A stretch of DNA of 64,000 nt from an uncultured Gammaproteobacteria bacterium (GCA_964491475.1 CAZBFO010000001.1:110720-174719), one strand, 5' to 3'. Positions 7,367 through 56,612 are shown, numbered from the stretch's first letter. The notes: generated from the sequence alone by a model not told the origin. Program-made: numbers and translations.

Positions 7367-8161
7367 TCATTGCAGCGTGGAGAAGGCGAATCCTTCGGCC
7401 CGAAGCGCCGGAACGATCTTGCGCAGGGCATCCGTGGTTGCCGGAGCGTTGGGACCGCCCAGGTGCATCACTACCACGCTGCCGTCCTTCGCGCTGCTTA
7501 TCACTCGCCGGGCAATCCCGTCCGCATTGCGGTTGAAGGCATCGCCGGAAACCAGGTTGCCGTCGTTTATCCGCAGTCCCTGCGACGTGACGATGGCGTC
7601 GTCGTGGGCGTTCTTGCAGAGACCGGGGTAGCGGAACAGCGTCGGTGCCTTGCCGGTCAGGCGTGTGAGTATCGACTGCGTCTCGGAGACTTCGGCACGG
7701 CGCTGATCGTCGGTCTTCAGCTCGTTGAGGCCGTAGCAGGGGAACTCGAAGCCGGAATGGTCATAGCTGTGATTCTGCAGCGAGAAACGATCGTCTTTCG
7801 CCAGGCCGGCAATGAGCGACTGGTACGTCTCGGCGAACATGCCGGTGACGAAGATGGTCGCATGTACGTCTTCCTGGCGAAGGTAGGCGATGAGGGCAGG
7901 GTCGTACCAGGCGCGGACTTTCTTTTCCTCGAGGCGCTTTTTCATCGAGGGCGTCATGTCGGCGTCGAAAGTCAGGTAGACCGTTTTGTTGGCGGCATTT
8001 GAGGACGCCACTTTTTGCGGCGCGTCGGCAGCCACGGGCAATTCGGATTTTCCGAATTGCAGCCCGGCCAGCGGGGAATGCCCGTCGGTGCAGCCAAAAC
8101 CGGCCACGCAAAGGACCGTGACCACGAAAGCGGCGAGTGACGATGCCCTGGGGTAAGTCAT
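7367..8161 (-). CDS. polysaccharide deacetylase family lipoprotein (NodB homology domain)
   Basis: Lipobox LCVAGFGC; NodB motifs TFDADMT, HSYDH, RYPGLC, VVMH. Confidence 0.8.
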   Translation of the reverse strand: MTYPRASSLAAFVVTVLCVAGFGCTDGHSPLAGLQFGKSELPVAADAPQKVASSNAANKTVYLTFDADMTPSMKKRLEEKKVRAWYDPALIAYLRQEDVHATIFVTGMFAETYQSLIAGLAKDDRFSLQNHSYDHSGFEFPCYGLNELKTDDQRRAEVSETQSILTRLTGKAPTLFRYPGLCKNAHDDAIVTSQGLRINDGNLVSGDAFNRNADGIARRVISSAKDGSVVVMHLGGPNAPATTDALRKIVPALRAEGFAFSTLQ

Positions 8162-8307
8162 GTGCAGACCATCTTTGCATGGCCGGCGAACGACGGCAAC
8201 GACCTGGCCGCTCCGCGACCTTCAAAATGCCATAATTTGGCTAAAAAAAGGCAAACTGTGGACGATGCACGTTGCTGGAAAACGGTTTTTTCGTTATACC
8301 GAACAAT

Positions 8308-11910: not shown

Positions 11911-12717
11911 GTGTTGAACGTGTCGAACGATCATGACCCCGCAAGGCTCCTTTCCGAAATCATTCTCGACCCCGACAACATGGACTTGCGGCAAGCGTAT
12001 GCTGCCGCCATCGCCCCATCGGACCCCGAGCGCGCCGAGTATGTCCGGCTTTCGCTCGAAACCATCGAGGCCGCTCAGCTCGCCGATCCCGACATGGGGT
12101 CGCGGCTGAAGCTGAATCAGCTGCGGAAGCTCTTGGGCGAAAACCGCGGACGCTGGATCAAGGCGCTTGCTCCTCATGTCCGGAACGCGGAGTTCTGGAG
12201 GGGCTTCGTCGAAATGGCGACGGTAAGCGCGCAATCGTTTATTGCGAGCGGTGAACGCCTGGTCACGATGGCGCCCATTCAGCATCTCGACGTGCATCCG
12301 TGGGGCGGCGTCGACGCGCGGCGATTCTGCGGCATGCAAGCGCTGGCGCGCATGAAGTCGCTCGTTCTGGCCAGCAACGGCTTGCGAGACGACTTCCTCG
12401 AAGCGTTGGTGCAGAGTCCGTACGTCGCGAACCTGCGCTACATCAGCTTGCGGTCGAACGGGTTCACCAAGAAGGGCGTACGCCTTCTTGCCGAGTCAGC
12501 GAACTTTCCGTCGTTGCGCTGGGTGGACCTCTCCAACACCGACTTTCCCGCGTCCGATACGGTCTTCGTGTTCGAAGACGGCAGCGTGTCGCTGCCCATC
12601 GTCGCGGACGAGGCGAGGGAGATCGAGGCGGAGATTGGTCGTCGTGTGCCGTGGCTGCACTATCCGACGCCACCGACCTGCATCTGGGACATGCATCCGA
12701 ATCCTTTTCGCCTGTAG
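11911..12717 (+). CDS. TIGR02996 (repeat-companion) domain protein with leucine-rich-repeat C-terminus
   Basis: N-terminal LRQAYAAAIAPSDPERAEYVRLSLE resembles the TIGR02996 signature. C-terminus has ribonuclease-inhibitor-like LRRs (LRYISLRSNGFTKKGVRLLAESANFPSLRWVDLSNTDF). Likely true start is GTG at 11920, 9 nt after GGAGG. Confidence 0.5.
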   Translation: MLNVSNDHDPARLLSEIILDPDNMDLRQAYAAAIAPSDPERAEYVRLSLETIEAAQLADPDMGSRLKLNQLRKLLGENRGRWIKALAPHVRNAEFWRGFVEMATVSAQSFIASGERLVTMAPIQHLDVHPWGGVDARRFCGMQALARMKSLVLASNGLRDDFLEALVQSPYVANLRYISLRSNGFTKKGVRLLAESANFPSLRWVDLSNTDFPASDTVFVFEDGSVSLPIVADEAREIEAEIGRRVPWLHYPTPPTCIWDMHPNPFRL

Positions 12718-12741: not shown

Positions 12742-12787
12742 AGGAACACCTTCAGGAACATCTTCGGGTGTTCCTGTTTTTATTACG
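12742..12787 (+). terminator. rho-independent terminator
   Basis: AGGAACACC...GGTGTTCCT hairpin followed by GTTTTTATT. Confidence 0.6.
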
Positions 12788-12812
12788 AAGGAAAGGGTAT
12801 GCTGACGGACGT

Positions 12813-13151
12813 ATGCGCCTACTCCTGCACATCCTGACCAACACTTTGGCCGTCGTCGTGGCGGCGTATCTGCTGCCCGGCATCGTCATAGACGGGTACC
12901 TTACGGCCCTCGTCGTGGCTGTCGTGCTCGGCGTCGTCAACGCCGTGGTCAAGCCGATTTTGGTGGTGCTGACCTTTCCGGTCACCGTCGTGACCTTGGG
13001 ACTGTTCCTGTTCGTCATCAACGCGCTGATGGTGCTGTTGGTGGCTAAGATCGTCCCCGGATTCGCCGTTCGCGGATTCTGGTGGGCGCTGCTGTTCAGC
13101 CTGGTGGTCTCGGTCGTCACCTCGTTCCTGAACGCCATCGCCGCCGAATAG
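12813..13151 (+). CDS. DUF360 / phage holin family 4 (YvlD-like) small membrane protein
   Basis: 112 aa, 3-4 TM helices. LLPGIVIDGY...LGVVNAVVKPILVVLTFPVTVVTLGLFLFVINALMV...VPGFAVRGFW pattern of Phage_holin_4_2. GAAAGGG RBS. Confidence 0.8.
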   Translation: MRLLLHILTNTLAVVVAAYLLPGIVIDGYLTALVVAVVLGVVNAVVKPILVVLTFPVTVVTLGLFLFVINALMVLLVAKIVPGFAVRGFWWALLFSLVVSVVTSFLNAIAAE

Positions 13152-13153
13152 CT

Positions 13154-13693
13154 ATGGCCGATGGAAAGCGTTGGACGCTCAAGCGCAACGCTCGCAGCCG
13201 GCGCCTATGGGTGCGGGTGCAGCGCGACGGCGCGGTGGTGGTCACCGCACCGGTTTTTGCGCCGCTTTCCGTCATTGATCGGTTTGTCCGCGACAAGTCC
13301 GAATGGATCGCCAAGACCGTGGCGCAGATGAGCCGCTACAAGGACGACGCCTTCCTCCCGCGTGACCGCCGCAGCTACCTGGCAAACAAGGAAAAGGCTA
13401 GGACGGCGGTCCGCGCGCTGCTCGCGCAGTACGCACCGCGGTACGGGTTTGCCTATCGGAACGTGTTCATCAAGAACATGCGTCGCAATTGGGGAAGCTG
13501 TTCGGAGTTGGGCAACCTGAACTTCAACTACAAGCTGGTGTTCCTGCCCGAACGACTGGCGGCGTACGTGGTGGTCCATGAGCTGTGCCACCTGGCCGTG
13601 TTCGATCACTCCAGGGCATTCTGGGAACTGGTGGCGCGCGAGATGCCGGACCACAAGAAGCTGCGACAGGAAATCCGCAAGTACCATGCATGA
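13154..13693 (+). CDS. YgjP-like metal-dependent hydrolase (DUF45/M48-like, HExxH)
   Basis: HELCHLAVFDH zinc motif and RRNWGSCS motif of the YgjP/SprT-like family. Start 3 nt after the holin-like gene stop. Confidence 0.8.
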   Translation: MADGKRWTLKRNARSRRLWVRVQRDGAVVVTAPVFAPLSVIDRFVRDKSEWIAKTVAQMSRYKDDAFLPRDRRSYLANKEKARTAVRALLAQYAPRYGFAYRNVFIKNMRRNWGSCSELGNLNFNYKLVFLPERLAAYVVVHELCHLAVFDHSRAFWELVAREMPDHKKLRQEIRKYHA

Positions 13694-13722
13694 AAAAAGC
13701 CGACCCGCTGGGTCGGCTTCTG
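13691..13722. terminator. convergent terminator (AAAAAA-GCCGACCC-GCTG-GGTCGGC)
   Basis: Perfect 9-bp stem. The U-run is on the minus-strand side, so it serves the lipoprotein paralog P1 and probably also the plus-strand gene. Confidence 0.65.
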
Positions 13723-13725
13723 CGT

Positions 13726-14262
13726 TCAGTCGCGTTTGAGGCTCATGACGATGTAGTCGAAGTCGGCGGAGGCTTCGGCGTCGCGTTCCCTCGGCCAAAT
13801 CCCGAAGACTCGCGTCAACTCTTCCGGGTCACGATGCATGCGCACGAATGAGACCCGGACCGCCTCGTGCCTTCTGCCGCAGTGAAAGGCAGCAAAGACC
13901 CCCGCGGGATGCAGCCGCGCCGTCACCTTCGCGCACCGTTCCCCCTGATTTTTCATCACTTCTCTTTCGAAAAGGGCGACCTCGTAAGGCGTTTTCTCGG
14001 TGCGCTTTACGATCAGATAGGCACGAGCCTCATTCGCCGCATTTTCGAATGCGGCGAACAGGGGAATGTGCGTTTCTGTTTTCCCTTCCTCGGATCGGGG
14101 GTGCCATCCCTCCGGCATTTCCAGAGAAAGCGCTGCTGGCGTTCCCGAAAAGAGGTGCATTCGTGGGGTTTCGGTCGGGATGGAGTCGATGGGACCATGT
14201 TTGGCGCAAGCCGCCGACAAAAGTGCCATTGACATCAGGGCAAAAGACCTGGAAATTCGCAT
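13726..14262 (-). CDS. lipoprotein, paralog family member P1
   Basis: Lipobox LLSAAC; C-terminal about 120-aa domain shared with P2-P5 (PEGW...VRVSFVRMH...GIWPRERDAEASADFDYIV). Confidence 0.65.
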   Translation of the reverse strand: MRISRSFALMSMALLSAACAKHGPIDSIPTETPRMHLFSGTPAALSLEMPEGWHPRSEEGKTETHIPLFAAFENAANEARAYLIVKRTEKTPYEVALFEREVMKNQGERCAKVTARLHPAGVFAAFHCGRRHEAVRVSFVRMHRDPEELTRVFGIWPRERDAEASADFDYIVMSLKRD

Positions 14263-14454
14263 GTGCTGCCTCGTCTTTTCTTCCGTCCGTTTTTGACGTG
14301 TATCGCACACTGTATCATAAAATAGCTCCTCCGGCAAGTCCTCGAGGCCCGATTTTTCCACGTATTTACCATTTCTCGGTCTCGTGCTTTACTGGCTTTT
14401 AAGCGGCCATGTCGGTCGCCACAGACGTTCCGAAAGGAACAGGAGCCCTTTCCA

Positions 14455-15063
14455 ATGCACAAGACAGCTTTGCTACTGGCGTGCGTCGCTTTCGCGGCCA
14501 TCGGATGCGGTTCCCAGCCGCAACAGGCACCCGCACCCGCAACGCCCACCAAGATCGTCGGTACGCCGCAGCCTGCCGCACCGGCACCGCCGGCCGAGGA
14601 GCCGAAGCAGCCCCCGGCCGCCCAACAGCCCGAGGAGCCCGAGGAGCCGGCCGAGCCCGCCAAGCAGATCACCTGCAAGCTGCCCGGCGGTTGGGCCAGC
14701 ATCCCGTCGTCGCGGCTGCCCGAAGGCATCACCGCGGTGTACATCAACCCGGAAAAGCACGGCCAGGTCGTGGTCCGTCCTGCCCCCGAGGGCAAGACGA
14801 CCGCCGCGCAGGCAGAGATCCTCCACCAGCTGATCGCCAAGAACAACCAGGGCATCAAGCTCTCGAAGATCAGCAGCGCTGCGGACGGCAAGTCGTCTTC
14901 GTTCACCATCGATGCCGGCGAAGTGCACGCCAAGCTGGTAGTCCGCAGGCTCGGCGGGCCGGACGACACCTTCGCCTTCCTCGGCAAGTGGGAAGCCAAG
15001 AACGAGAAGGCCCTCGCGCCCGACGTCGACAAGATCATCAACGGAGCGGCGCTGCAAAAGTAG
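14455..15063 (+). CDS. lipoprotein, paralog family member P2
   Basis: Lipobox AAIGCG, Pro/Ala/Glu-rich linker, then conserved domain (LPGGW...AKLVVRRLGG...GKWEAKNEKALAPDVD). AGGAG RBS. Confidence 0.7.
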   Translation: MHKTALLLACVAFAAIGCGSQPQQAPAPATPTKIVGTPQPAAPAPPAEEPKQPPAAQQPEEPEEPAEPAKQITCKLPGGWASIPSSRLPEGITAVYINPEKHGQVVVRPAPEGKTTAAQAEILHQLIAKNNQGIKLSKISSAADGKSSSFTIDAGEVHAKLVVRRLGGPDDTFAFLGKWEAKNEKALAPDVDKIINGAALQK

Positions 15064-15077
15064 CCGGCGCGCCATCG

Positions 15078-15104
15078 CCTCGCGGATTCGCGAGGTTTTT
15101 TCTT
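15078..15104 (+). terminator. terminator for P2
   Basis: CCTCGCG-GATT-CGCGAGG followed by TTTTTTCTTTG. Confidence 0.7.
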
Positions 15105-15133
15105 TGCAAAAAATCCCGACGCGAGGTCGGGAT
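15105..15133 (-). terminator. terminator for P3 (minus strand)
   Basis: ATCCCGAC-GCGAG-GTCGGGAT with U-run on the minus strand; near-identical to the P1 and P5 terminators. Confidence 0.7.
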
Positions 15134-15138
15134 GACGG

Positions 15139-15645
15139 TCATTTCGGATCGATGCTCAAGAAAATGGCAGCGAAGTCCTGGCTGGCCTTCTTGTCGCGTT
15201 CGGCGGCCCATTCGCCCTTGAGGATGAGCGCCGTCCCGTCCGGGTAATGGCGAACGGCCACGCGGCCGTGACGGCGAGGCGTGTCGAAGGGGAACGTGCC
15301 CTCCGAACCGTCGTCGGCCATGATGCCGTTTTGGCAGTGCCAACCTTGGACGGTCAGCATGCGGCAGAACTGCTGCAGCTCGAGTTCGAGCGACTTGACC
15401 GACTTGCCGACCATGATGTCGACGCGGGCGTCGATCGACTCGTTGAGGAGGGTCGAAGGCGATGCCCGTTTCCAGCCCTTGGGCAGCGTCATGGTCAGTT
15501 CACGGTCCAACGGTCGCGGCGGCGGACTGCCGTTGAGCTGCGCGTGCGCGCGTGGCGGTCTGGGACCGGACGCGGGCGGCGAACCGCCGCAGCCGCAGAC
15601 AAGTGCCACGACTCCGACCAGCAGCCATCGTCGCACCGCCGTCAT
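15139..15645 (-). CDS. lipoprotein, paralog family member P3
   Basis: Lipobox ALVCGCG; LPKGW...VQGWHCQNG...GRVAVRHYPDG...GEWAAERDKKASQDFAAIF. Start overlaps the P4 stop (ATGA). Confidence 0.7.
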   Translation of the reverse strand: MTAVRRWLLVGVVALVCGCGGSPPASGPRPPRAHAQLNGSPPPRPLDRELTMTLPKGWKRASPSTLLNESIDARVDIMVGKSVKSLELELQQFCRMLTVQGWHCQNGIMADDGSEGTFPFDTPRRHGRVAVRHYPDGTALILKGEWAAERDKKASQDFAAIFLSIDPK

Positions 15646-16160
15646 CGGTACTCCGCGGAGGCGGCGACGGCATCGACGGCCTTGCGGCCTTGGGCATCGG
15701 CCTCTTGCGGCCATTGGCCCATGACGACCACATGGAACGCGCCTTTTTCGAAATGCCGGACGACGATTTTTCCGCGCACCCCGCCGCGCCGCACCGCGAA
15801 CGCGGCCATGGCGCCGTCCGCGGACGCGGTGACTGCGGAACAGCGCATTCCGCCTTGGCGCAATATGCCGGCCAGAGCCTGGGCTTCGTCCCTGGCGTCC
15901 TCGTCCGCGGGGGACTTGGCGACCATGATCCGGGCGCGCAAGTCCTCGTTCACGCTGGAGATGGGCTGGCAGCCGACGGCCTTGGACATGTCGATGGGCG
16001 GCCATCCCGGAGGCATGGTGACCCGCAGATGCGGCTGTTCTGCCGGTAAGGGCGTAGCCGCTGCTGCTTTGGGCGGTTCCGTCGCGGCCGGAGCCGCGGG
16101 CGGTCTGGCGCATGCCGCAGTCATCAGCAGCGCCAACGCGAGCAAGGCTTGTTTGCACAT
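15642..16160 (-). CDS. lipoprotein, paralog family member P4
   Basis: Lipobox LMTAACA; MPPGW...RQGGMRCSA...GKIVVRHFEKG...GQWPQEADAQGRKAVD. Confidence 0.7.
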   Translation of the reverse strand: MCKQALLALALLMTAACARPPAAPAATEPPKAAAATPLPAEQPHLRVTMPPGWPPIDMSKAVGCQPISSVNEDLRARIMVAKSPADEDARDEAQALAGILRQGGMRCSAVTASADGAMAAFAVRRGGVRGKIVVRHFEKGAFHVVVMGQWPQEADAQGRKAVDAVAASAEYR

Positions 16161-16239
16161 GGGCGAACCCTCCGTTGTCCAATGAAAAGGAGCATGAACG
16201 CCACGATAGCACAGCCGCGGCGCGCGGCAACCTGCGCAA

Positions 16240-16266
16240 GAAAAAACCCGACGGCGAGGTCGGGTT
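16240..16266 (-). terminator. terminator for P5 (minus strand)
   Basis: ACCCGAC-GGCGAG-GTCGGGT plus A-run on the plus strand (U-run on minus). Confidence 0.65.
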
Positions 16267-16272
16267 GAGAGG

Positions 16273-16866
16273 TCACTCGACCTGCGTGGTCTTGACCATC
16301 GTGTCGAAGTCCTTGGCGGCCTGGGCGTCGTCGGCCTTGGCCCAGCGGCCATACAGCTGCACCTGGCAGCGGGCCGGACCGGCGAGGTCGCGGACGGCGA
16401 TCTTGCCCTTGGTCTTCTCGGTGGCGAAGGTGAAGGTCGCACCGGTACCATCGGCCAGCAGCTTGGAGGGCGTGCAGCTCCATCCCTGCCCGCTGCACAT
16501 CACGCCGATGATCCTGCCGACATGCTCGACGGCCGTCATTTTGGCGTTGACCTCGAAGTCCATCAGGACCAGCCCGCTGACCTCGGCATTGATCAGGCCG
16601 AGCTTCCACGGCTTGCGCACCAAGTTCTCCGGCGCTTGCGACCACGCCGGCGGCGTGTCGAAAGTCAGCTTGAACGACTTGGCGCCGGGCGTTTGGGTGT
16701 GCCCCGCGTGATTAGGCGGAAGCTTGGGCTTTTCCTCCGACTGGTGCGCAGGCGGCGGATCCGGCGGTGCGGCCGGGGAATTGGCCGGCTTGGGCGCAGG
16801 TGCGGCCTGACCGCAGGCGACCAGCAGGGCAACTGCGGAAAGCAAAATTGCCTGACGTTTGAACAT
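16273..16866 (-). CDS. lipoprotein, paralog family member P5
   Basis: Lipobox LLVACG; PPAWSQAP...SGQGWSCTPS...GKIAVRDLAG...GRWAKADDAQAAKDFDTMV. GGAGGAAG RBS. Confidence 0.7.
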   Translation of the reverse strand: MFKRQAILLSAVALLVACGQAAPAPKPANSPAAPPDPPPAHQSEEKPKLPPNHAGHTQTPGAKSFKLTFDTPPAWSQAPENLVRKPWKLGLINAEVSGLVLMDFEVNAKMTAVEHVGRIIGVMCSGQGWSCTPSKLLADGTGATFTFATEKTKGKIAVRDLAGPARCQVQLYGRWAKADDAQAAKDFDTMVKTTQVE

Positions 16867-17036
16867 CGTCTTCCTCCGATTGGGCAATAAGCCCAAGTGC
16901 AATCAAAGAACCACTGTTAGCCATACTCACCGATACCGTTTTGACTGTCAAATAAGCCAAAAAAGAAGCTGGGGACCGTGCCGGCAACCCAGTCAAAAAA
17001 ATGGCTTATTTTAGCCATAAAAGCGACCAAAAATCC

Positions 17037-17065
17037 TTGACAAAATGATCAAAATATGCTATAGT
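17037..17065 (+). promoter_or_regulatory. consensus promoter TTGACAAAATG-N-aTGcTATAGT
   Basis: TTGACA, 17-nt spacer, extended -10 TGnTATAGT, about 30 nt before the small lipoprotein gene. Confidence 0.6.
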
Positions 17066-17094
17066 ACAGGCACGATCAACAAGGAGATTGTCAA

Positions 17095-17334
17095 ATGAAT
17101 ACCACCAAGTTCGTTCTCGGTATCGCTCTCGCCCTTTCCACCCTCGTCGGTTGCTCCGGTCCTCTGGTCACCTTCTCCTACAAGGTGGTCGACCCGCCCG
17201 CTGAAAAGCGGTACCTCACGACGCACTGCGTCTCGAGCAGCAACTGCACCACCATCTACACCGATCCTGCAAAGGAAGAAAAAGAGCTCGAAGAGTACAA
17301 AAAGAACCACCCCCGCCCCAACCCCAACAAGTAA
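17095..17334 (+). CDS. small lipoprotein (79 aa)
   Basis: AAGGAG RBS; lipobox LVGCSG; C-terminal EEKELEEYKK and Pro-rich tail. Confidence 0.5.
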   Translation: MNTTKFVLGIALALSTLVGCSGPLVTFSYKVVDPPAEKRYLTTHCVSSSNCTTIYTDPAKEEKELEEYKKNHPRPNPNK

Positions 17335-17351
17335 GCCGACTCCCACACTTA

Positions 17352-17381
17352 AACCGCCCTGCTTTGGCAGAGCGGTTTTTG
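17352..17381 (+). terminator. rho-independent terminator
   Basis: ACCGCCCTGC-TTTG-GCAGAGCGGT followed by TTTTT, between convergent genes. Confidence 0.6.
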
Positions 17382-17401
17382 AATCGGGCGAGGCGACGGG
17401 G

Positions 17402-18616
17402 TCAGCTGCGGATTTCTGAAAGTCGGGCCGTCACCGCGTCGATGAACGCTTCCGTCGTGGCCGGCTGGGCGACCTTGATGGTCGTCAGCGAGATCAGGTC
17501 CTTGGTCATGATGCCGCGGTCGATGCAGTCGATGGTGGCTTCTTCCAGGTTACGGGCGAACTCGACGACGTCGGGCGTGCCATCCAGCTCGCCGCGCTTG
17601 GCCAGCGCGCCGGCCCAGGCGAAGATGCTGGCGACGGAATTGGTCGAGGTCGGTTCGCCCTTGAGGTGCTTGTAGTAGTGGCGCTGCACGGTGCCGTGTG
17701 CCGCTTCGAACTCGAAGGCGCCGCCGGGACTGACCAGCACCGAAGTCATCAGGCCGAGGCTGCCGTATCCGGCGGCCAGCATGTCCGACATGACGTCGCC
17801 GTCGTAGTTCATGCAGGCCCAGAGCATGCCGCCCTCGCTGCGCATGATGCGCGCCACGATGTCGTCGATCAGGCCGTAGGAGTAGGCGACTCCCACGGCG
17901 GCAAGTTCCTCCTTTTTCGCCTCGACCTCTTCGCCGAAGATGGCGCGGAAGCGGGCGTGATAGGTCTTGGAGATGGTGTCTTTGGCACCGAACCAGATGT
18001 TCGTGTTCTCGGACAGGGCATAAGCGATGCAGGCCTGGGCGAACGAGCGGATGGAAGCGTCGGTGTTGTGAATGGCTTGCAGGATGCCGGGGCCTTTGAA
18101 CTTGGCGACGGGCACGCGCTGCTCGAGGCCGTTGGCCCCCTTGAATACCAACTCCGCTTCGCCGGCACCCCACGGCGCGAACTCCGCGTTCTTGTAGACG
18201 TCGCCATAGGCGTGGCGGGCGATGACGATGGGCTTGTTCCAGCCGCGGACCATCGGCGGGATGCTCTTCACAAGGATCGGCTTGCGGAAGACGGTGCCGT
18301 CGAGGATGCCGCGGATGGTGGCGTTCGGGCTGGGCCATTCCTTTGCCAGGGAGTATTCCTTGACGCGGTCGGCGTTGGGAGTGATGGTGGCGCACTTCAC
18401 GCCGACGCCGTGCTTGAGGATGGCGGCCGCCGAGTCTGCCGTGACCTTGTCGGCGGTCTCGTCGCGGTACTTGATACCGAGGTCATAGTATTCGAGCGTG
18501 ACGTCGAGGTGAGGAAGGATCAGTTTTTCCTTGATCAGCGCCCAAATGACGCGGGTCATCTCGTCGCCGTCCAGCTCGACCAAAGGGGTTTTCACGGTGA
18601 TCTTCTGTCGTGACAT
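17402..18616 (-). CDS. icd: NADP-dependent isocitrate dehydrogenase (subfamily II, eukaryotic-type)
   Basis: 404 aa with hallmark IDH motifs ([25 protein letters not shown]). Confidence 0.9.
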
Positions 18617-56581: not shown

Positions 56582-56612
56582 CCGACCGGATACGTCCGGT
56601 CGGCTTTTTTAT
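56582..56612 (+). terminator. rho-independent terminator
   Basis: CCGACCGGA-TACG-TCCGGTCGG followed by CTTTTTT. Confidence 0.8.

Follow-up and report, generated by a model that had tools for sequence, protein, structure and literature searches.

A 64,000-nucleotide stretch of DNA from an uncultured Gammaproteobacteria bacterium (GCA_964491475.1 CAZBFO010000001.1:110720-174719), here called the window, carries five adjacent genes, P1 to P5, that encode paralogous lipoproteins. Their sequence family has no name and belongs to a structural class of envelope lipoproteins that is well known. The family's C-terminal domain is clearly predicted to be a Mog1/PsbP-like alpha-beta-alpha sandwich of small size, with LpqN, Mtc28 and DcrB as its nearest relatives in structure. 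The genes occupy a fixed chromosomal slot in which the copy number varies between genomes, and they diverge faster than their neighbours. Our preferred reading, to which we give a probability of about 0.5, is that the proteins would act in the envelope as non-enzymatic modules, tethered to a membrane, for binding or adaptor functions, and that the copies, once duplicated, would have come to have different partners as their surfaces diverged rapidly. Positions are those of the window. Labels such as L001 denote loci, and labels such as P0001 denote family members.

Gene array and protein family

All five open reading frames (ORFs) are intact, with ATG starts and stop codons. The ORF list, the translations and the ribosome-binding sites all agree with the coordinates and strands that a sequence-only reading of this DNA had assigned to the genes (Table 1). 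A Shine-Dalgarno element, GGAG/GAGG, is found 6-10 nt 5' of the start of each gene, and P2 is the sole copy on the + strand. The gene call of the public assembly starts P1 at Met49 (L001 3935-4327, 130 aa), which drops the signal peptide and the lipobox. We favour the longer P1 start because it has a ribosome-binding site and because its orthologue Q1 at locus L002, on a contig of the metagenome-assembled genome (MAG) nzgw371, bears a lipobox.

Each protein begins with a signal peptide that satisfies a PROSITE PS51257-type lipobox rule, in which the peptide ends in [LVI..][AST..][GAS]-C and has a basic n-region and an uncharged h-region. The cysteine is at residue 17-19 in all five. The rule is satisfied by 79 of 95 family representatives, and the L002 orthologues retain the lipobox. 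The sequence pattern is that of a substrate of Lgt and LspA, the lipidation itself being predicted only. The linker that follows has 24-52 residues, of which proline and alanine make up 41-69% in P2-P5 and just 25% in P1. The layout of lipobox, Pro/Ala-rich linker and C-terminal domain that had been proposed for the five is therefore found in all of them, except for the composition of the P1 linker. The C-terminal domain, about 125 residues, can be aligned across P1-P5 and displays the motifs PxGW, N, QGW.C, DG, GK..VR, G.W and D..A.DF. The shared motifs listed by the sequence-only reading (PxGW, QGW..C, GK..VR and G.W....D..A.DF) are all seen in this alignment. The conserved positions are residues of the core type (P, G, W, N and D), and the remaining positions are variable. 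A cysteine pair, C-x8-9-C, surrounds QGW and is conserved in P3, P5 and their relatives, which would fit a disulfide formed in an oxidising compartment.

The pairwise identity among the five proteins is 18-30%. BLASTP among them gives only 23-43 bits, and the match of P1 to P5 is not significant. Low as this identity is, the proposed paralogy holds, as a profile of distant relatives recognises all five at 59-111 bits. This leave-out hidden Markov model (HMM), composed of 78 members that are each less than 35% identical to any window paralogue, scored P2 at 110.8, P4 at 103.8, P5 at 98, P3 at 65 and P1 at 58.8 bits; it is partly circular, since its members were recruited with a profile containing the five. 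By these profile comparisons, P1-P5 are judged to be true paralogues of one family, of which the window holds exactly five copies. A chance resemblance confined to the lipobox and the linker was ruled out by domain-only profiles.

An exhaustive domain-only profile search of 1.84 billion cluster representatives returned 145 proteins at E<=1e-3, 36 of them at E<=1e-10. This count marks the family as rare. Nearly all of the 145 have 150-220 residues and the same lipobox-linker-domain layout. A few very long matches in multiple stretches (P0055, P0081, P0087 and P0125) resemble repeat-protein noise. The family size was taken from this search because a word-indexed protein search was erratic; it missed P3 in its first run and most of the L002 orthologues in both runs. 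The view that the domain belongs to no named sequence family was borne out. Scans of the five proteins against Pfam, NCBIfam, PADLOC and PHROGs gave insignificant or low-complexity matches only. With Pfam at E<=10 for the five and at E<=0.01 for 95 family members no relevant model was matched, and three unrelated single matches were found among the 95.

The otherwise low-complexity linker contains a short motif in part of the family. Either [AG]HQ[ASN][ED] or a variant of it, [RK]Q[YF][DEQ]G with prolines after it, is located 20-30 residues before the domain in 20/95 representatives (among members P0005-P0096), where shuffling expects 0.18. P5 is the only window copy that has it. In the full-length P5 model the local confidence rises to 76 at residues 31-40, just before the motif, which hints at a docking peptide.

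Table 1 Features of the lipoprotein array, its surroundings and related loci. Locations are window positions unless a locus is named.
Feature	Location	Strand	Description
P1	13726-14262	-	178 aa lipoprotein; lipobox Cys19; linker 24 residues; C-terminal PsbP-like domain (predicted) ~13729-14130
P2	14455-15063	+	202 aa lipoprotein; Cys18; Pro/Ala/Glu-rich linker 52 residues; domain ~14662-15060
P3	15139-15645	-	168 aa lipoprotein; Cys19; domain 15142-15504
P4	15642-16160	-	172 aa lipoprotein; Cys17; domain 15645-16031
P5	16273-16866	-	197 aa lipoprotein; Cys18; linker 47 residues; domain 16276-16677
P5 linker motif	16735-16749	-	AHQSE, residues 40-44
T1	13697-13719	-	P1 intrinsic terminator, AAGCCGACC-cagcg-GGTCGGCTT then TTTT; in L002 the stem is kept and the loop differs
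T2	15078-15095	+	P2 intrinsic terminator, CCTCGCG-gatt-CGCGAGG then TTTTTT; kept in L002
T3	15113-15133	-	Intrinsic terminator of the P4-P3 unit, ATCCCGAC-ctcgc-GTCGGGAT then TTTTT
T5	16245-16266	-	P5 intrinsic terminator, AACCCGAC-ctcgcc-GTCGGGTT then TTTT; separates P5 from the P4-P3 unit
P1/P2 divergent control region	14263-14454	.	Promoter-like and hairpin blocks for P2
P2 promoter-like element	14365-14393		TTTACC (14365-14370), 17-nt spacer, TGC-TTTACT (14385-14393)
P2 hairpin 1	14403-14419		GCGGCCA-TGT-CGGTCGC
P2 hairpin 2	14427-14440		GTTCC-GAAA-GGAAC; abuts AGGAG ribosome-binding site
Hypothetical gene	11911-12717	+	268-aa protein without Pfam match
Holin-like/YgjP-like pair	12768-13693	+	Holin-4_2-like four-helix membrane protein and YgjP-like HExxH metallopeptidase, tightly spaced
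Promoter-like site	17037-17065		Near-consensus TTGACA-17-TATAGT, extended -10, before the small lipoprotein gene
Small lipoprotein gene	17095-17334	+	79 aa; lipobox LVGC, then V-T/S-F motif; divergent from P5
L007 array			One copy, between the small lipoprotein gene and YgjP
L010 array			Two copies at the slot
L020 array	L020, 786-1856		One fused two-domain gene, 356 aa
L017 array	L017, 7166-10771		Five co-oriented genes
L014 array	L014, 20-2331		Three genes with four domains beside a GH5 glycosidase; unrelated context, another lineage

Predicted fold of the C-terminal domain

Structure models were made for two paralogues, P3 and P5. The AlphaFold2 model of the P3 domain, from an 11-sequence alignment, has a predicted local distance difference test (pLDDT) of 94.4, a predicted template modelling score (pTM) of 0.87 and the topology E-E-E-H-E-E-E-H. 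In the full-length P5 model (35 sequences) the domain has a pLDDT of 91-98 and the linker has low confidence. The Mog1/PsbP-like fold consists of an antiparallel sheet with one helix on each side, arranged as a beta-hairpin, strands, a helix, strands and a C-terminal helix, and both predicted models have this alpha-beta-alpha sandwich. The two models, independently, match the same structures. The structural scores (P3 and P5, respectively) are 13.2 and 10.9 for LpqN, 12.4 and 10.4 for 3lyd from Jonesia, 11.5 and 10.4 for Mtc28, 11.2 and 9.5 for CyanoP, 11.0 and 9.5 for Mog1, 10.6 and 8.8 for DcrB, 10.5 and 8.5 for PA0094, 10.1 and 7.7 for SciW, 9.4 and 9.1 for Apa, and 9.2 and 8.0 for Tsi3. 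The Foldseek probability is 1.0 for PsbP, Mog1, 3lyd, Mtc28 and DcrB. Structure prediction and the Foldseek query therefore gave confident models and recovered a known fold, and the structural novelty that the unnamed domain had seemed to offer was not upheld. The domain has no catalytic signature. In bacteria, the Mog1/PsbP-like fold is typically a non-enzymatic accessory module, and often a membrane-tethered one.

LpqN, Mtc28 and Apa of the actinobacterial envelope (PDB 6e5d, 4pws and 5zxa; also 3lyd) are exported and lipidated or secreted, as is predicted for the array proteins. They consist of one Mog1/PsbP-like domain behind an N-terminal extension rich in Pro/Ala, with no known enzymatic activity. 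LpqN interacts with MmpL3 and MmpL11, binds lipid mimics and was crystallised with them (PMC7458404). By analogy, the array proteins could be lipid handlers, each domain binding a hydrophobic lipid or lipoprotein intermediate of the envelope that it would hand over to, or receive from, a transporter of the inner membrane, the long linker spanning the periplasm, and the extensions of Mtc28 and Apa ahead of the same fold agree with such a role. We consider this unlikely. None of the contexts examined has an RND (resistance-nodulation-division) or MmpL transporter gene close to the array, the identity to LpqN, Mtc28 and Apa in structural alignments is 7-13%, and the LpqN (Lpp-LpqN) Pfam model does not match the family. 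Five rapidly diverging copies would also be unexpected for carriers of conserved lipids. Furthermore, LpqN, Mtc28 and Apa are encoded by single genes, whereas the genes described here form a tandem five-gene array, and the array host, at 62% GC, looks like a different type of organism.

Other proteins with this fold differ in their own ways. DcrB is a membrane-anchored periplasmic Mog1p/PsbP protein, one of a group whose members are said to associate with complexes anchored in the membrane (PMC7716261). This DUF1795 inner-membrane lipoprotein of Enterobacteria (PDB 6e8a) is single-copy and has no long Pro-rich linker, and no DUF1795/DcrB Pfam match was found in 95 family members. PsbP, CyanoP and PNSL1 are lumenal extrinsic subunits of photosystem II and NDH. 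Their domains are larger, with 150-190 residues compared with about 125 in the array family; neither a Pfam PsbP match nor a PDB sequence match to PsbP was found for the family, and no photosynthesis genes were present in the window regions examined. The Eag/DUF1795 effector chaperones of the type VI secretion system (T6SS), PA0094/EagT6 and SciW, are cytoplasmic proteins that have no signal peptide and bind the transmembrane helices of effectors, while the array proteins bear lipoprotein signal peptides.

Divergence and copy number at the chromosomal slot

The order of genes in the window is peptidase M3, a 268-aa hypothetical, a holin-4_2-like gene, a YgjP-like metallopeptidase gene, the array, a small lipoprotein gene, NADP-isocitrate dehydrogenase (IDH) and aconitase. 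Locus L002 has the same five array genes, all intact and 1:1 orthologous, with order and orientation kept. Between the window and L002, the neighbouring genes have an amino-acid identity of 78-88% and a dN (nonsynonymous divergence) of 0.07-0.13, whereas the lipoproteins have an identity of 30-52% and a dN of 0.39-0.73. The dN of the copies is about 3-10 times that of the flanking housekeeping genes. The dN/dS ratio is 0.30-0.58 for the lipoproteins compared with 0.07-0.08 for IDH and YgjP, but dS (synonymous divergence) is near saturation (0.8-1.9), so these ratios are rough. P1 is the fastest-evolving copy, 30% identical to its L002 orthologue and 44% to that of L009. The P2 orthologues P0006, P0007 and P0008 are 65-73% (depending on the alignment), 71% and about 50% identical, respectively. 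P4 is 43% identical to its orthologue P0009 in L002 and 41% to the single-copy P0012 of L007.

Fast divergence could also be the relaxed constraint of redundant duplicates that drift toward loss. The raised dN, the low identity of P1 to its orthologues, its lack of a Pro/Ala linker and its shortening by the automatic gene caller would agree with that. Drift is nevertheless very improbable: all five ORFs are intact in both the window and L002, their lipoboxes, ribosome-binding sites and terminators are preserved, dN/dS is below 1 for every copy, the core motifs are kept, and AlphaFold2 is very confident for P3 and P5. The copies are fast-evolving, not decaying.

L009, a partial locus from a closer relative, shows P3-, P2- and P1-like genes. 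In more distant relatives, with identities to the window of 53-70% for YgjP and 74-79% for IDH, the content of the slot changes (Table 1). In L017, the genes R2-R5 have a mutual identity of 34-41% and are at most 28% identical to any window paralogue. R1, which adjoins IDH, is the only L017 copy that pairs with P5, and it has the P5 linker motif. Because the L017 copies are closer to each other than to the window paralogues, either the expansion has been recurrent or the copies have been homogenised within lineages. From these sequence relationships, at least one expansion looks independent. The sequence-only reading had described an old lineage-specific expansion. The age is supported by the same five genes, 1:1, in L002, but lineage-specific expansion is too simple a description for a locus that has one, two, five or fused copies elsewhere.

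The locus search used alignment patterns of the P2 subfamily and found one species-representative genome. This is JAHFIW010000004.1 (L002/L006, MAG nzgw371), the only species-representative genome with the array. According to the supplement of PMC12455944, MAG nzgw371 is classified as Patescibacteria, class ABY1, with 1.17 Mb. The 62-kb contig has 59% GC, encodes aconitase, isocitrate dehydrogenase, a sigma-70-family factor and MacB-type transporter genes, and its proteins are 78-88% identical to those of the window. We doubt the label because Patescibacteria does not fit this gene content, and by its genes the contig looks mis-binned, which could matter for inferences of horizontal transfer from MAG nzgw371.

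Proposed function

Under the reading of the proteins as tethered binding modules, each would be exported and lipidated at its lipobox cysteine. The lipid would tether the protein to the membrane through the flexible, unstructured linker, which would bear the compact Mog1/PsbP-like domain. In the periplasm, the domain would dock onto a membrane complex or a hydrophobic ligand, as its relatives LpqN, Mtc28, DcrB and PsbP/CyanoP do. The gene, at its fixed slot between IDH and the YgjP-like gene, would have been tandemly duplicated repeatedly. Because the copies change at several times the rate of the neighbouring genes while the structural core is kept, the five paralogues probably recognise different partners.

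Several points weigh against this reading. The fold assignment is based solely on predicted models, and neither Pfam, nor hhalign to DcrB, nor PDB profiles link the family at sequence level to any characterised one. Two family profiles searched against the PDB sequences had no significant match (E >= 0.1), and the best relevant match, LpqN (E 0.15), covers the signal peptide and linker only. In hhalign, family profile A4 matched E. coli DcrB with a probability of 0.2% and an E of 0.28. A partner or ligand is proposed only by analogy with relatives of the same fold, and the neighbourhood offers no functional clue, the array being convergent with the YgjP-like gene and not co-transcribed with it. 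The fold serves many roles (chaperone, immunity, scaffold and lipid binding), so that a binding module is a generic assignment.

The sequence-only reading had named receptor, immunity or nutrient-binding functions as typical of such arrays, a suggestion that is speculative here. The same tethering and divergence could also serve protection. The genes would then encode immunity (antitoxin-like) lipoproteins, each neutralising a different periplasm-acting toxin, from competitors or from the cell's own secretion system, and the array would have grown in an arms race. There are precedents in the periplasmic immunity proteins Tsi3, Tli4/TplEi and Smlt3025, and the fold is common to Tsi3 and Tli4. 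Tandem copies that change in number by lineage, the apparently independent five-copy expansion in L017, a divergence far above that of neighbouring genes with dN/dS of 0.3-0.6, and a membrane-tethered periplasmic placement that would suit protection of cell wall or membrane are all expected of such proteins. We nevertheless hold it to be a decidedly minor possibility. Unlike the precedents, the array has no adjacent cognate effector or secretion-system genes, its structural scores to them are weaker, and it is stably syntenic between genomes. No effector, T6SS, type IV secretion system (T4SS), Rhs or toxin gene adjoins it in the window or in eight related contexts, where peptidase M3, holin-4_2-like, YgjP-like, IDH and aconitase genes are the neighbours. 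In the window, L001, L002, L007, L009, L010, L017 and L020, the neighbours are housekeeping or hypothetical genes with no effector-like Pfam domains. The array lies outside any mobile or variable island and is conserved 1:1 between the two nearest genomes. The average dN/dS is below 1, and there is no PADLOC match, though PADLOC covers anti-phage systems only.

A broader and more speculative version, which we think still less probable, takes the IDH-YgjP slot as a hot spot of repeated independent expansion of a PsbP-fold lipoprotein into arrays whose copies diverge rapidly. The arrays would then serve in a type of envelope defence not recognised before, for instance as orphan immunity proteins against periplasm-acting toxins or as decoys or blockers against phage or predator attachment, and the linker motif, written as [HR]-Q-x-[ED]-[AG]-P, would dock a common partner.

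Terminators and transcription units

The near-identical terminators reported after P1, P3 and P5 were found as T1, T3 and T5, with (G/C)CCGAC...GTCGG(G/C) stems that begin 5-6 nt past the stop codons. The window contains 3 occurrences of the pattern AAAAANCCGAC-N3-12-GTCGG, where 0.00 are expected; the one at 56582 has no relation to the array. Different stems are found in about 20 further strong terminators of the window, and the sequence of T2 is unrelated to T1, T3 and T5. In L002, the terminator stems are conserved and the loops are not. T3 and T5 have in common a 28-nt repeat that is collinear with a short repeat in the 3' coding ends, at spacings of 1133 and 1134 nt. The proposed co-duplication of gene and terminator fits P3 and P5, for which the 28-nt repeat in the same register makes it plausible, but a 6-bp stem is no proof for genes that are about 27% identical.

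The stop codon of P4 and the start of P3 overlap as ATGA, as had been read from the sequence. P4 is the first gene of a P4-P3 bicistron, and P3 is by this overlap predicted to be translationally coupled to P4, which has no terminator of its own. Because separate terminators follow P5, P3, P2 and P1, there appear to be four transcription units, P5, P4-P3, P2 and P1.

Upstream of P2, within 14365-14445 (+), a promoter-like element is strongly conserved in a three-genome alignment, and two conserved hairpins lie in the 5' untranslated region. RNAalifold gave 11 pairs for these hairpins, one of them compensatory, in the first hairpin. Judged from this conservation, the blocks could serve to control translation or transcription. 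Across 13000-17600, Rfam gave only sub-threshold eukaryotic snoRNA noise and no family match.

Neighbouring genes

No secretion-system, toxin, integrase or transporter genes are found near the array in the window. The YgjP-like gene is convergent to the array in nearly all related contigs (L002, L007, L009, L010, L017, L020 and one JGI contig), with the holin-like gene present too in L002, L007, L009 and the JGI contig. The position of this pair beside the array may reflect a link in function or nothing more than synteny. Where the window has the 268-aa protein between peptidase M3 and the holin-like gene, L002 has a Fic-domain gene (7577-8206), so that the conserved region contains a second small variable spot. 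The small lipoprotein gene on the other side of the array has positional equivalents in L002 (58 aa, 46% identical, with the same promoter block) and in L007 (74 aa). It has no Pfam or PADLOC match.

Small lipoproteins are common as phage exclusion factors, and a gene of the Phage_holin_4_2 family lies about 600 bp from the array. The array might on these grounds be cargo of a prophage or mobile element, such as superinfection-exclusion lipoproteins, an origin that we regard as extremely improbable. Homologues of PF04020 are chromosomal membrane proteins of wide occurrence. The longer contexts have IDH, aconitase and peptidase M3 as flanks of the locus, and nearly all contexts have the YgjP-like gene there. 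The sole PHROG match is weak and lies in the signal-peptide and linker region of P2, the P2-subfamily patterns found no relative among 2.9 million viral contigs, and no integrase or repeat boundaries were seen. A mobile-element origin is largely refuted by the conserved housekeeping synteny.

Significance

Overall, the observation made from the sequence was confirmed and its interpretation stood in part: the paralogy, the unnamed family and the age of the expansion held, and the structural novelty and the simple lineage-specific expansion did not. The array is an ordinary finding, not categorically new and unlikely to surprise a specialist; it is the dynamics of the locus that are instructive. 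The work defines a small unannotated lipoprotein family, with no Pfam or NCBIfam model and with 145 representatives among 1.84 billion proteins, and places it, by structure, with the membrane-tethered accessory modules of the Mog1/PsbP/LpqN/DcrB class. A depositable profile would end the 'hypothetical' labels of these genes. As an evolutionary case, one fixed slot in related uncultured bacteria is found with one copy, two copies, a fused two-domain copy or five copies. If the copies are immunity proteins, orphan immunity arrays can hide in core-genome regions. If instead the copies differ in their partners, the array would offer a natural experiment in how the specificity of this fold evolves.

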